64,000 nucleotides of DNA from Deltaproteobacteria bacterium (GTDB lineage Bacteria; Desulfobacterota; Desulfobacteria; Desulfobacterales; Desulfatirhabdiaceae): contig JBAXVB010000001.1 in assembly GCA_037129415.1 (NCBI GenBank), positions 1,047-65,046 of the forward strand, in the 5' to 3' direction. Positions 56,354 to 63,472 of the stretch are shown here, piece after piece. The notes under the pieces are model-generated. The model did not search any database and had not been told where the DNA came from. It worked only from the letters and a program-made list of their open reading frames with translations. The first letter of the stretch is position 1. Each line of letters opens with the position of its first letter. A program made the translations under genes and the position numbers.

Positions 56354-59300
56354 TTGGAAACGCTATATGATTTTTTCGCTAAACCCATGGATCCCAAACG
56401 GTACACAGGTGTACGAATTGCCCTGGCATCTCCGGAGCAGATACTTAAATGGTCGCACGGTGAGATAAAGAAGCCTGAAACCATTAATTATCGAACATTT
56501 AAGCCCGAACGCGATGGGTTGTTCTGCGCAAAAATATTTGGCCCTACAAAAGACTACGAATGCAATTGCGGAAAATACAAACGAATGAAACACAGAGGTG
56601 TCATTTGTGAAAAATGCGGTGTGGAGGTCATACAGTCCAAAGTTCGCCGAGAACGCATGGCGCATATTGAGCTGGCCTGCCCCGTTGCGCATATCTGGTT
56701 TCTCAAAAGTCTTCCCAGCAAAATCGGTAATTTGCTGGATCTGACGCTCAAAAACCTTGAGAAGGTTCTGTATTTTGATAGTTATATTGTTATTGATCCG
56801 AAAGAGACTCCCTTAGTGCGTGGTCAGCTTCTTTCGGATGATAAATACCGTGACGCCCTGGAAGCATTTGGTCCCAAATTTGAAGCAGGTATCGGTGCAG
56901 AGGCCATAAAAACTCTGCTGGATGACATTGACCTCCAGACCATTTACCAGGAACTTCGTGTCGAAATCCGAACAAGCAATTCATCCGCCAAACGCCAAAA
57001 AATGGCTAAACGGCTGAAAATCGTGGATGCCTTCAGGCGATCCGGCATTGATCCAACATGGATGATTATGGATGTCATTCCTGTATTGCCTCCCGACCTG
57101 CGGCCTCTGGTTCCTCTTGAAGGCGGCCGCTTCGCAACTTCCGATCTCAACGATCTATATCGACGGGTCATCAATCGGAACAACCGGCTGAAACGCCTGA
57201 TCGAACTGCGGGCCCCGGATATCATCATTCGAAATGAAAAGCGCATGCTGCAGGAGGCTGTAGATGTACTTTTTGACAATGGTCGGCATGGAAGGGTGAT
57301 AACCGGAACAAATAAACGTCCGTTGAAATCGCTTAGCGACACGCTGAAGGGAAAACAAGGTCGTTTTCGCCAGAATCTGTTGGGGAAACGCGTGGACTAT
57401 TCCGGCAGAACAGTTATTACCGTGGGTCCCAATCTCCGGCTTCATCAGTGTGGTCTTCCCAAAAAGATGGCGCTTGAGCTTTTTAAGCCCTTTGTCTATT
57501 ACCGCCTGGAACAAAAGGGGCTGGTGCAAACGGTCAAAAGCGCCAAAAAAATGGTTGAAAGTGAAGATCCCCAGGTTTGGGATACCCTTGATGAAGTGGT
57601 GCGCGAATATCCGGTTATGTTGAACCGTGCGCCCACGCTCCACCGGCTGGGAATTCAGGCTTTTGAACCGATTTTAATTGAGGGAAAAGCGATTCAGTTG
57701 CATCCGCTTGTGTGTACGGCATTCAACGCCGATTTTGATGGCGACCAGATGGCGGTACACATCCCTCTTTCCGTTGAGTCTCAAATTGAAGCCCGCATAC
57801 TCATGCTCTCCAGCAACAATATTCTTTCACCTGCAAACGGGAGTCCCATCATTGTTCCCAGCCAGGACATTGTTCTGGGTATTTACTATATGACTCGCGA
57901 GGTCTCGGGGGCCAGGGGCGAGGGTATGTTGTTTGCGGGTCCCGAAGAAGTGCGTTCGGCTTATGACGCAGGAATTGCCGCCCTTCATGCCGGGATAACG
58001 GTGCGTATTCATGGAAAACGTCTGAAGACAACCGTTGGCAGAATGCTTCTTTGGGAAATCATGCCCAAGGATACGGTGATGGTGCTTCGTCGCATCATGA
58101 CGGATACACATGAAGAAGCCCTGCAGGTAAAGCAAGAACTCGGTGGCGACGCTTCATTTGTGGCATTGGTCCAAAAGTATTCTCAGCATCCGGACAAAGC
58201 ACATAAGGGACTAATAGGCCGACTTAGAAGCGAGGAGTTCAAACGGGTATTTCCGGCAACCGAAGAGGAGGTTGACGTGTTGTTTTCGCTGAGCCCCGGC
58301 GACACCAGCGAGATTATGAGCTTTGATGAAGCCTACCATATTTTTGAAGTAGTTGACCGTATGCCGGAAATTCCATTTGATGTGATTAACAATGTGATGG
58401 ATAAAAAGTCACTCCGCGATTTGGTGGACTATGCATACCGAAACTTGGGGCCGAAATCCACCGTCATTCTGGCGGATCGGATTAAAGACATTGGCTACCG
58501 GTATTCGACAGAGGCCGGTCTTTCCATTTCAATTGATGCCATGATTATTCCGGATGCAAAAGCAAAAATTCTAAAACATGCTGAAGAACGGGTCAAGGAA
58601 ATCGAAAAACAATACACGGAAGGTTTGATTACGCCGGGTGAGAAGTATAACAAGGTTGTCGATATCTGGGCTAAAGCCACGGATGATGTAGCCAACGAAA
58701 TGATGGAAGCCATGAAAATGGAAAAAGTCGATAAAGATGGCAAATCCGTTTTTCAGGAAAGCATGAACCCCATCTACATGATGGCTGATTCGGGAGCCAG
58801 GGGCAGCAAGGATCAGATGCGCCAGCTTGCTGGAATGCGCGGGCTGATGGCCAAGCCTTCCGGCGAAATCATTGAAACACCGATTACGGCGAATTTTCGT
58901 GAAGGCCTCTCGGTGCTTCAGTACTTCATCTCAACGCATGGCGCTCGCAAAGGTCTTGCCGACACGGCATTGAAAACCGCCAACTCAGGATACCTCACTC
59001 GGCGACTTGCGGATGTGGCTCAGGATTGCGTGGTCAGCGACGATGATTGCGGGACGCTGATGGGGGTAGATGTGGAGCCTTTGACAGAAGGCGGGGAAGT
59101 GATTCAACGGCTAGGAGACCGTATTTTGGGACGCGTGGCATGTGAAGACATTTTGGATCCCTATACCGATGAAGTCCTTATCACGACGGGAACCGAACTG
59201 GATGAAGTTGCTGTCAAGATCATTGAAGATGCTGGCCTGAAAAAAGTCCGGATTCGAAGCGTTCTGACCTGCAAATCCGATCATGGTGTTTGCGCCAAGT

Positions 59301-60766
59301 GTTATGGGCGCGACCTGGCGCATGGGCGCACTGTCGAAATCGGACAGGCTATTGGTATTCTTGCGGCCCAGTCCATTGGGGAGCCTGGAACACAGTTGAC
59401 TATGCGCACCTTTCACATCGGTGGAACAGCCAACCGCCGCGTGGAACAGGCGGATATTCGGGCGAGGGTGGACGGAACAGTAAAATTTCAAGACCTGGTT
59501 GTCGAGGCAAATTCTGAAGAACATGAAATTGTCATGAACCGAAAAGGTGGGGAATTTGCTATCATTGGTGAAACTGGGCGAAAACTGGAACAGTTTTCTG
59601 TGATATTTGGCGCCAATGTACATGTGAAAGACGATCAGAAAGTAAAGGTTGGAGATTTGCTGGCAACCTGGGATCCCTTTACCACCCCGATTATTTCGGA
59701 AGTCAGGGGCGTTGTAAAATTCGGTGATATTACACAGAACAAAACCATGCAGGAAAAGGTGGATCCAGTTACCCTGAAATCGAGCCGCACCATTGTAGAG
59801 TCCAAAAATATCGACGAACGGCCCAGAATTTCGATAAAGGATGACGACGGAAAAACCGCCAAGCTGCCAAGGTCCAGCGGATGGGCCAGGTATATGCTGC
59901 CAGTGGATGCCATCTTGCTGGTTGAGGAAGGGGACGAAGTTAAGGCAGGTGATGTGGTTGCCAAGCTGCCCCGGGCGACGACCAAGACAAAAGACATTAC
60001 CGGTGGTCTTCCGCGTGTGGCCGAACTGTTTGAAGTCCGAAAACCGAAGGACATTGCTGTGCTGAGTGAAATCGATGGCTATGTAGCGATTGCAAAGAGC
60101 AGCAAGAAGGGAAAGCAGAAGGTGACCGTCACGCCGGTTGATGTTGGCGAGAAGAAAGAGTACCTTATTCCCCGTGGAAAACATATCAATGTGATTGAAG
60201 GGGATTATATTCGCGCCGGGGAGCCGCTTATCGGTGGATCCAAAATTCCTCAGGATATTTTAAATATCAAGGGTGAAATCGAACTTGCGCGATATTTGGT
60301 GAATGAAGTCCAGGAGGTTTACCGGCTTCAGGGTGTACGCATCAACGATAAGCATATTGAGGTCATTGTTCGTCAGATGATGCGCAGGGTGAAGATTACG
60401 CAGGTCGGAGACACTGATTTTATTCAGGATGAGCAGATCGACAAGCTTCGTTTCCAGGAAATCAATGCGGCAATTGTCGATAGAATTTTCGAAGAAGAAG
60501 ACAGTGCCGGCAAAATTGTCGCCAGACATGGAGTTCCGGCAAAGGCGGAGCCGCTTATCTTGGGCATCACCAAAGCATCGCTGAGTACCGAAAGTTTTAT
60601 TTCAGCAGCATCTTTTCAGGAAACCACAAAAGTTTTAACGGATGCAAGCATTGCCGGCGCCGTGGACTGCCTTCGCGGTCTGAAAGAAAATGTGATCATG
60701 GGAAGAACCATTCCCGCAGGAACAGGATTTCCGGCGTATCGCGAAATCAGAATAGATGCATCCTGA
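56354..60766 (+). CDS. rpoC: DNA-directed RNA polymerase subunit beta-prime, with an extra ~95-aa parvulin-like insertion
   Basis: 1470 aa, TTG start. It has '[12 protein letters not shown]' and the trigger loop with an SI3-like insert. The extra segment at residues ~574-670 is described in the findings. Confidence 0.99.
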
Positions 60767-60986: not shown

Positions 60987-61358
60987 ATGCCTACAATTAA
61001 CCAGTTGGTAAGAAAGGGAAGAGATCGGATCAAGAAGAAGACCAATACGCCTGCGCTGAAAGGGGCGCCTCAGAAAAGGGGGGTTTGCACTCGGGTTTAC
61101 ACTTCAACACCCAAAAAACCGAACTCTGCGCTCAGGAAAGTGGCTAGGGTAAGGCTGACGACAGGTATTGAAATCACGGCGTACATTCCGGGCATCGGAC
61201 ATAACCTTCAGGAGCACTCGGTTGTTCTGGTTCGCGGGGGCCGCGTGAAAGATCTTCCCGGCGTAAGATATCACATCATCAGAGGAACATTGGATACGTT
61301 AGGTGTGGATGACCGGAAACAGAGCCGATCAAAATACGGAGCCAAGAAACCCAAATAA
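60987..61358 (+). CDS. rpsL: 30S ribosomal protein S12
   Basis: '[12 protein letters not shown]...[16 protein letters not shown]'. Confidence 0.98.
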
Positions 61359-61418
61359 ATTAAGATATCGATCGCTTAAGGGTTAACAAGTAACTTTTTA
61401 GAGAAAATGGTGTAGGAT

Positions 61419-61889
61419 ATGCCCAGACGAAGAGAAATCGCTGAAAGAGTAATCATTGCAGATGCAAAATACGACAGCAAGCTTGTGGCTAAATTTATCA
61501 AATCAATCATGCGGGATGGGAAGAAGAGTATCGCAGAATCAATTCTCTACAATGCTTTCGGTATTATCGAAAAAAAGACGAGCGAAGCACCGCTAAAAAC
61601 ATTTGAGCAGGCAGTTGACAATGTCAGGCCGATAATTGAGGTAAAATCCAGGCGCGTAGGTGGATCTACTTATCAGGTGCCTACGGAGATACGGCAGTCG
61701 CGGCGGACGGCATTGGGGATTCGATGGCTCATCGGCTTTGCAAGGAAAAGATCCGAGAAAAGCATGGCCGAAAAACTGGCTGCTGAGATAATGGATGCCG
61801 CTAACAACAAAGGGTCTTCTGCAAAGAAAAAAGAGGACACTCATAAAATGGCTGAAGCCAATAAAGCCTTTGCGCATTACCGGTGGTAG
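61419..61889 (+). CDS. rpsG: 30S ribosomal protein S7
   Basis: 'MPRRREI...[26 protein letters not shown]'. Confidence 0.98.
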
Positions 61890-61949
61890 TCTCTGACCGC
61901 TGGCAGCATGAAAGAAACGGATTGACCGCAAAAAAAGGAGGACAGTGAA

Positions 61950-63143
<1,194 letters not shown>

Positions 63144-63160
63144 GAAAAGAGACGAAAACC

Positions 63161-63472
63161 ATGATTATGAATAGTAAAATCCGAATCAGACTTAAGGCAT
63201 ACGACCATAAACTGCTGGATCAATCAGCGTCAGATATTGTGGATACTGCCAACAAAACTGGGGCGAAAGTCATTGGTCCGATTCCGCTGCCGACCACGAT
63301 CAATAAAATATGTGTACTTCGCTCTCCACACGTTGACAAAAAGTCTCGTGAACAATTTGAGATGCGAACCCACAAACGACTGGTTGATATTCTGGAGCCA
63401 ACGCAGCAGACGGTTGATGCGCTAATGAAGCTTGATCTTTCTCCAGGCGTCGATGTAGAAATTAAACTGTAG
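63161..63472 (+). CDS. rpsJ: 30S ribosomal protein S10
   Basis: '[40 protein letters not shown]'. Confidence 0.98.

Follow-up and report, generated by a model that had tools for sequence, protein, structure and literature searches.

Lineage-specific inserts of RNA polymerase (RNAP) are known regulators of transcription initiation, pausing, and factor access. For the β′ subunit, the published catalogues describe these inserts as SBHM/HABAS, BEAN/BBM2, or sLC domains (PMC2939025; PMC11515920), and Alvarez-Carreño et al. 2024 (PMC11515920) count the element β′-bD4 among seven known insertion locations. An association between RNAP and the parvulin family of peptidyl-prolyl isomerases (PPIases) is described for eukaryotes, where Pin1/Ess1 is the parvulin that isomerises RNA polymerase II at its C-terminal domain, the CTD (PMC7994582; PMC4350670). 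Here, we report that the rpoC gene of a Desulfatirhabdiaceae genome carries, in frame, a 99-residue insert that, as judged by sequence profile, AlphaFold model, and Foldseek search, is a parvulin (PpiC/PrsA-type rotamase) fold. The gene lies on a stretch of 64,000 nucleotides from a Deltaproteobacteria bacterium (GenBank assembly GCA_037129415.1, contig JBAXVB010000001.1, positions 1,047 to 65,046 of the forward strand), hereafter referred to as “the window”, to which all coordinates refer.

A parvulin-type domain in the pore-1 region of β′

The host gene rpoC occupies 56354..60766 on the + strand and encodes a β′ subunit of 1470 amino acids (aa) from a TTG start, as established from the list of open reading frames (ORFs), the translation, TIGR02386, and Pfam. 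It is a full-length match to the β′ equivalog model TIGR02386 (1744.8 bits, at a cut-off of 963.5), it matches the Pfam Rpb1 domains 1 to 5, and the NADFDGD active site is present in its translation. Upon pairwise alignment with MAFFT, E. coli RpoC displayed one gap of 99 residues, at G586/L587, opposite aa 574-672 of the window protein, and the RpoC fragments of Syntrophobacteraceae and Desulfarculus were likewise 99 aa shorter than the window over this interval. The insert thus delimited covers 58073..58369 on the + strand, in frame with rpoC. A first-pass annotation, made from the letters and their ORFs, had placed about 95 extra residues at 58073-58363. The 97 residues that it quoted for this segment were reproduced exactly by translation, and the extra segment itself is borne out by the E. 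coli gap, while its length has to be corrected to 99 residues and its 3′ end moved by the missing 6 nucleotides.

Sequence and structure comparisons of the insert led to the same fold. Taken alone, the insert matched the Pfam Rotamase family PF00639 at 35.6 bits (E 1.9e-8; gathering cut-off 21.7), and with the whole RpoC as query the match was still above this cut-off (29.5 bits); NCBIfam returned weak PrsA, NifM, and SurA matches on RpoC. When the single insert sequence was compared with the sequences in the PDB, PrsA was found at 3e-4, and a profile of 20 orthologous inserts found the parvulin domain of B. subtilis PrsA at 3.4e-11, together with 58 parvulin chains in the PDB below 0.01. AlphaFold2 on the same 20-sequence alignment yielded a model (predicted local distance difference test, pLDDT, 93.1; predicted template modelling score, pTM, 0.85) with the predicted elements E-H-H-H-E-H-H-E-E, which is the strand and helix order of parvulins (topology β1-α1-α2-α3-β2-α-α4-β3-β4). 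Using Foldseek against the PDB, we found that the 50 best listed matches were all parvulins (probability 1.00; query template modelling (TM) score 0.60-0.81), among them YacD, PrsA, SurA, PpiD, Par14, Par10, and Pin1. These significant profile and structural matches uphold the parvulin-like assignment of the first-pass annotation. An already described type of β′ insertion with another fold, such as an SBHM- or BEAN-type domain, was also considered and rejected: The segment 58073-58369 gave only Rotamase family matches and only parvulin fold matches, and the SBHM-like Pfam matches of the window RpoC were confined to aa 1088-1210 (the SI3 and β′-bD6 region), outside the insert. Among parvulins, the RpoC inserts form a distinct group, with complete inserts scoring at least 94 bits as compared to at most 66 bits for any stand-alone parvulin. 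They are acidic (median net charge -7; isoelectric point 4.9), whereas Par10 and PrsA are basic or neutral, and this acidity argues against nucleic-acid binding.

The insertion point can be placed precisely within β′. The match to the Pfam family RNA_pol_Rpb1_3 (pore-1) is split at aa 574, which corresponds to position 82 of the 162 in the profile, and the 58 residues that precede the insert correspond, in the nomenclature of PMC11515920, to the bacteria-specific element β′-bD4, which is embedded in β′-uD3. In the window, this element spans 57899..58072 (+ strand), as located from the Pfam break, the domain table, and conservation, and it ends in LLWEIMPKD, of which L565, L566, W567, and E568 were invariant in 81/81 insert-bearing sequences. 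Directly after the insert, the conserved pore-1 domain resumes at 58370..58408 (+ strand), in alignment with E. coli aa 587-599. The linkers that join the insert to β′ are only 3-4 residues long. In an AlphaFold model of 260 aa that comprised the insert and its flanks (pLDDT 82; pTM 0.63), both bD4 (pLDDT 84-94) and the parvulin were confident, and the junctions were not of low confidence either (block means of 86 at the N-terminal and 83 at the C-terminal side), which suggests that the insert is tightly tethered to β′. In a Foldseek search with the 260-aa model, the listed matches were insert-less β′ chains (query TM ~0.43), none of which covered the insert; hence, among the matches listed, a domain in this place was not seen in any solved RNAP.

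The same region of β′ is where the subunit is divided in cyanobacteria and plastids. Models for the cyanobacterial γ subunit (rpoC1) aligned up to aa 555 of the window protein, and those for rpoC2 (β′2) started at aa 675-678, which places the insert at or adjoining the natural split point. The junction is therefore demonstrably permissive and presumably surface-exposed. By sequence, the insertion site also lies 29-40 residues upstream, in E. coli numbering, of K615, I619, D622, and Y626, the residues of site 1 for guanosine tetraphosphate (ppGpp), and this proximity suggests that the insert may be located on the ω and secondary-channel face of RNAP. A different insertion was seen close by in a metagenomic RpoC fragment that lacks the parvulin (P0084): Its β′-bD4 hairpin holds an insertion of approximately 60 aa, which aligns upstream of window aa ~553-558 and contains a lipoyl/SBHM-like motif (…VIVQPGEEVRAGQVLAEEF…), and E. 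coli has 13 extra residues at this same spot. The parvulin joins β′ some 14 residues downstream of this hairpin, where bD4 reaches its C-terminal end (E. coli 586/587), so that bD4 contains two distinct insertion hot spots that are ~14 residues apart.

Active-site and groove residues

To compare the insert with catalytic parvulins, active-site positions were mapped by alignment to Pin1, Par10, and PrsA, and the residues at each of them were counted over 81 orthologous inserts. The first catalytic His (Pin1 H59; the His of “SHILV” in PrsA) corresponds to R580 in the window (58091..58093, + strand; alignments and codon check), and the census counted H in 48, R in 20, and Q in 13 sequences. The catalytic Cys/Asp position (Pin1 C113; the Asp of “YSTD” in PrsA) is H612 (58187..58189, + strand, by alignment), with S 33, G 23, H 16, A 6, D 1, and N 1 in the census and never a Cys. 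At the Thr position of the tetrad (Pin1 T152, Par14 T118) stands F657 (58322..58324, + strand, by alignment), the counts being A 35, F 18, S 16, V 3, T 2, and M 2. The second His (Pin1 H157) is retained as H662 (58337..58339, + strand) in a YHIF strand that aligns to YHII of PrsA and Par10, and it was kept in 79/81 inserts. By alignments, census, and codon check, the first-pass annotation had thus been right on both His residues, the replacement of the first (RRIM) and the retention of the second (YHIF), and the degenerate catalytic site that it proposed turned out to be more so than claimed, given the His at the Cys/Asp site and the Phe at the Thr site. The canonical tetrad His-Cys/Asp-Thr/Ser-His (Pin1 H59-C113-T152-H157; Par14 H42-D74-T118-H123) was found in 0/81 inserts, with a single H-D-A-H as the nearest approach. 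As judged from these residues, the active site of the insert is probably not catalytic.

The commonest site patterns among the 81 sequences were H-G-A-H (18), R-H-F-H (16), and Q-S-S-H (9). The R-H-F-H set consists of exactly the window and 15 of its relatives (L001-L015), and the pattern is fixed in this clade down to ~67% insert identity. Since 48/81 sequences retain the first His, the Arg at this position is a feature of the window's sub-clade. Within this sub-clade, the changes of the first His to Arg, of the Cys/Asp site to His, and of the Thr site to Phe always occurred together (16/16). To us, R-H-F-H looks like a coordinated remodelling of the active site, with the His moved to a neighbouring position, and not like random decay. 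Some of the departure from the canonical site may also be older than the insertion. The closest stand-alone parvulins have Ser or Ala at the Cys/Asp site (“YSESPD”), several of them with Gln at the first His; one is annotated as a peptidylprolyl isomerase, and the nearest ones include a protein from a deltaproteobacterial metagenome-assembled genome (MAG), which we regard as a weak hint to the origin of the insert. As such non-canonical sites occur in the closest stand-alone proteins, part of the apparent degeneration may predate the insertion and may have been inherited from the donor family.

Within the β2-α4 segment lies a motif of charged and aromatic residues (58223..58252, + strand). This motif, with the consensus [LF]R x [DE]EF[KR]R[IV]F, is clade-specific and nearly invariant over the 81 sequences: E628 was conserved in 80/81, F629 in 79/81, and R631 in 80/81, and position 633 was F in 65 and Y in 14. 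In Pin1, the corresponding segment forms the substrate flap and the proline pocket, and F629 and F633 of the window are the equivalents of Pin1 M130 and F134. Altogether, the positions equivalent to the Pin1 proline pocket (L122, M130, and F134) read [ILV]-F-[FY] in 77/81 inserts. D614/K615 and R579 are further near-invariant charged residues that are specific to the clade. The basic β1-α1 loop of the Pin1 type (17 residues, with K63, R68, and R69) was absent from all RpoC inserts that were aligned with Pin1.

Distribution, constraint, and gene context

We determined the distribution of the insert by scanning one genome per GTDB species with the pattern [FL]Rx[DE]EF[KR]R[VIM]F, where relatives had to cover both the insert and its flanks. 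At least 255 species-level genomes carry the insert. From these 255 confirmed genomes, 80 loci were retained, on which the statements on taxonomy and alignment rest; in addition, ~20 metagenomic protein clusters were found to carry it. Almost all of the 80 loci come from Desulfobacterales or from MAGs labelled “Desulfobacteraceae”, including Eth-SRB1, Ca. Desulfatibia, Ca. Desulfaltia, Desulfatirhabdium/Desulfatirhabdiaceae, and Desulfococcaceae, and a Desulfatitalea fragment begins inside the insert. The nearest relatives of the window (93-95% identity in this segment) are the MAGs Umea1, AlinenLipids, LacPavin, and Loc090721-6m, whose isolate names suggest lake-water samples. Over aa 480-760, all 80 loci were colinear and had the insert at one and the same site, and, among the sequences compared, the insert was absent from the RpoC of Syntrophobacteraceae, Desulfarculus, and E. 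coli. The identical site and the colinearity argue for a single acquisition, and the sequences support a gain that happened once, in an ancestor within the Desulfobacterales. One insert-bearing contig (L055, CAXMTB010000006.1) is labelled “uncultured Nitrospinaceae bacterium”, whereas the other retained loci bear Desulfobacterales, deltaproteobacterial, or generic Proteobacteria/Pseudomonadota labels; mis-binning of the contig or a wrong taxonomic label is the probable reason, and not horizontal transfer.

The insert evolves under constraint. Among the 16 closest sequences, the median ratio of nonsynonymous to synonymous substitution rates (dN/dS, Nei-Gojobori) was 0.128 in the insert as compared to 0.037 in the flanking core, indicating that the domain is under purifying selection, though less so than the core enzyme. 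Accordingly graded values were found for the mean amino-acid identity over 78 sequences (50% in the insert and 78% in the flanks), and no stop codon occurred in the 78 gap-free loci that were translated. Variants of the domain were also encountered. In three loci (L035 6001-6453, L065 6001-6462, and L080 6001-6453; two of them labelled Desulfatirhabdium or Desulfatirhabdiaceae), a helical-looking segment of 26-27 aa is nested between α1 and α2, before window aa 597, as an insert within the insert. Two metagenomic RpoC fragments are eroded, one by a deletion of 13 residues that removes helix α3 and the YS…G loop, along with loss of the second His (P0014), and the other by the lack of either His (P0018, with DC… and FNIF), which indicates that the domain can degenerate further in some lineages.

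Homologous proteins were searched with a 260-aa segment comprising the insert and its flanks, as an insert-only query of 117 aa gave no match. The matches were RpoC fragments of at most 450 aa, with no full-length insert-bearing RpoC among them, so that the counts from these protein searches understate the family; presumably, clustering at 50% identity in the representative library merged such proteins with insert-less β′. A search of this library with the insert profile returned RpoC fragments, followed by multi-parvulin proteins of the SurA/PpiD type, and ten checked matches, the longest included, had no RNAP domains. Hence, no second independent fusion of RNAP and parvulin was found, which, since the 50% clustering conceals full-length RpoC, is no proof of its absence.

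Beyond the insert, the window β′ resembles that of E. coli, including an SI3-type barrel-sandwich region near aa 1088-1210. The longest rpoC ORF begins with TTG at 56354, and its N terminus aligns with that of E. coli β′; a non-ATG start is plausible, because the aligned E. coli coding sequence itself opens with a Val-type codon (GTG start). The gene belongs to the classical cluster of genes for ribosomal proteins and RNAP, in the order rplK-rplA-rplJ-rplL-rpoB-rpoC-rpsL-rpsG-tuf-rpsJ (49.6-63.5 kb of the window). Over 60987-63472, rpsL and rpsG are followed directly by tuf (EF-Tu, 397 aa) and rpsJ; fusA (EF-G) is absent between rpsG and tuf, unlike in the classical str operon.

Candidate roles and comparison with known systems

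We consider it somewhat better than an even bet (a probability of roughly 0.55) that the insert is a parvulin module that is non-catalytic or, at most, weakly active and that provides a protein or peptide contact or a structural element on the RNAP surface. In this view, a parvulin fold of 99 residues was spliced with short linkers into the loop at the end of β′-bD4 of the pore-1 domain, once, in an ancestor within the Desulfobacterales, and has been kept under purifying selection. The canonical catalytic network is missing from every sequence examined, and the second His, the hydrophobic pocket, and the charged flap motif are conserved. An acidic parvulin module would thus be displayed on the RNAP surface, where the old substrate groove and the flap may contact a partner, be it a protein or a peptide, or may dock the domain onto RNAP itself. 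There is precedent for such a module: The parvulin domains of SurA P1 and PpiD lack PPIase activity and act as binding modules, and the parvulins of PrsA, SurA, and PpiD are themselves inserted into their host proteins, so that these inactive, embedded parvulins lend plausibility to a non-catalytic RpoC insert. Several points weigh against this proposal. The facing of the conserved residues toward solvent, RNAP, or the domain core is deduced solely from homology to Pin1 and PrsA, and the conserved pocket residues and the second His could simply reflect the stability of the fold. Furthermore, the sub-family may have a site that is non-canonical yet working, as the Ser/Ala and Gln of the close stand-alone parvulins would allow, and the erosion seen in P0014 (13-aa deletion, second His lost) and P0018 (no His) fits a dispensable passenger equally well.

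Two other roles of the domain deserve discussion, and we judge both of them to be unlikely. The insert might be a working prolyl isomerase with a non-canonical site that is tethered to RNAP and acts on RNAP, on σ or elongation factors, or on nascent proteins in coupled transcription-translation. The predicted fold is intact, the second His (79/81) and the proline-pocket positions (77/81) are conserved, and Ser/Ala at the Cys/Asp site recurs in the nearest stand-alone relatives, one of which is annotated as a peptidylprolyl isomerase. Such activity is, however, hard to reconcile with an alignment in which none of the 81 sequences has the His-Cys/Asp-Thr-His network, the Cys/Asp site being S, G, H, or A, and in which the window clade additionally lacks the first His and the Thr-site residue. 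The Pin1 mutants C113A and C113S are strongly impaired, no basic phosphate loop of the Pin1 type is present in the inserts, and one variant has lost both His (P0018). On the side of an isomerase, β and β′ of E. coli aggregate once all six cytoplasmic PPIases are removed, and both subunits co-purify with PpiB (PMC7353009). A bolder form of the idea, that the Desulfobacterales RNAP possesses a built-in functional peptide-binding or prolyl-isomerase module that acts in cis on σ or elongation factors, on secondary-channel factors, on the folding or assembly of β′, or on nascent polypeptides, seems to us a long shot; if true, such a cis module would be the bacterial, covalently fused counterpart of the relationship between Ess1/Pin1 and RNA polymerase II.

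The insert could, alternatively, be a neutral passenger that happened to land in a permissive loop at the surface and that persists only because clean loss is rare and an unfolded insert would be harmful to an essential enzyme. The site is indeed permissive, at or next to the cyanobacterial split, the catalytic site is eroded, and the domain evolves ~3.5x faster than its flanks in terms of dN/dS (50% vs 78% identity); moreover, a nested insertion of 26-27 aa is tolerated in Desulfatirhabdiaceae, and so is a 13-aa deletion in P0014. We nevertheless find it doubtful that the domain is neutral, as it is full-length, free of frameshifts and stops in every locus examined, across several families, with a dN/dS of 0.13 that is clearly below neutrality, and as its near-invariant charged loop residues (E628, R631, D614/K615, and R579) are not obviously needed for the fold alone. 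An artefact, finally, is so improbable that it hardly enters the weighing: An assembly chimera or a frameshift is at odds with the same in-frame insert, at the same site and without stops, in 80 independently assembled genomes and ~20 metagenomic clusters, and an intein or mobile element is at odds with the lack of any intein or transposase family match and with boundaries that do not show the intein Cys/Ser...His-Asn signature.

How new is a parvulin in this place? The first-pass annotation had called the fold unusual for a β′ insert, in agreement with published surveys, which list SBHM/HABAS, BEAN, and sLC domains and no parvulin (PMC11515920, PMC2939025). In the text of PMC11515920 and two of its supplementary files, parvulin, PPIase, and Desulfobacterales are not mentioned, and within the searchable full-text literature, a scope that leaves out the catalogues of Lane & Darst 2010 and Iyer et al. 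2004, we found no description of a parvulin or PPIase in RpoC. Precomputed Pfam annotation does already flag PF00639 in these RpoC proteins, so that the architecture is visible in databases even if undiscussed. The parvulin insert is thus not categorically new: The lineage-specific RNAP insert is a known phenomenon, and it is the parvulin fold in that role that is apparently undescribed, while being robust and widespread. That it is fixed in β′ throughout an order of sulfate reducers with environmental importance, whose insert-bearing members include syntrophic partners of alkane-oxidising archaea such as Eth-SRB1, breaks the pattern in which RNAP inserts draw on a very small set of folds. The insert also marks the cyanobacterial split junction as a second permissive site in β′ and provides a concrete case in which a folding-catalyst fold was recruited into the core enzyme of transcription. 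Should the domain bind a partner or retain activity, it would constitute a previously unseen way of regulating bacterial RNAP; should it be inert, it would still offer a rare genomic change by which the clade can be cleanly marked in phylogenies, and a natural model for placing engineered domains in β′.

Compared to described systems, the insert resembles the other lineage-specific inserts of β′ (Thermus β′i2, the E. coli and cyanobacterial β′i6/SI3, and the HABAS/SBHM, BEAN, and sLC domains) in its arrangement, being an in-frame, independently folding domain in a surface loop that is present in one lineage and under selection. It likewise occurs in one clade at a fixed site, is absent from the relatives compared, and is in frame and conserved. 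It differs in its fold, a parvulin α/β rotamase in Desulfobacterales where the known inserts are SBHM/HABAS, BEAN, or sLC. The best matches in sequence and structure are the parvulin domains of PrsA, SurA (P1/P2), and PpiD, which are also inserted domains with adjacent termini; their hosts, however, are extracytoplasmic folding chaperones, whereas here the host is the catalytic subunit of the cytoplasmic RNA polymerase. Pin1/Ess1, too, is a parvulin-fold protein, and it is functionally coupled to a multisubunit RNA polymerase through the largest subunit of the enzyme. Yet, Pin1/Ess1 is a separate protein with a WW domain, the full tetrad, and a basic phosphate-binding loop, while the insert is a fusion in cis that has neither tetrad nor basic loop, and bacterial β′ lacks the CTD repeats of the RNA polymerase II partner. 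The split of rpoC1 and rpoC2 in cyanobacteria and plastids, lastly, affects the same region of β′, and both cases point to a permissive junction, which in cyanobacteria and plastids tolerates a break of the chain and in Desulfobacterales accommodates an extra folded domain.

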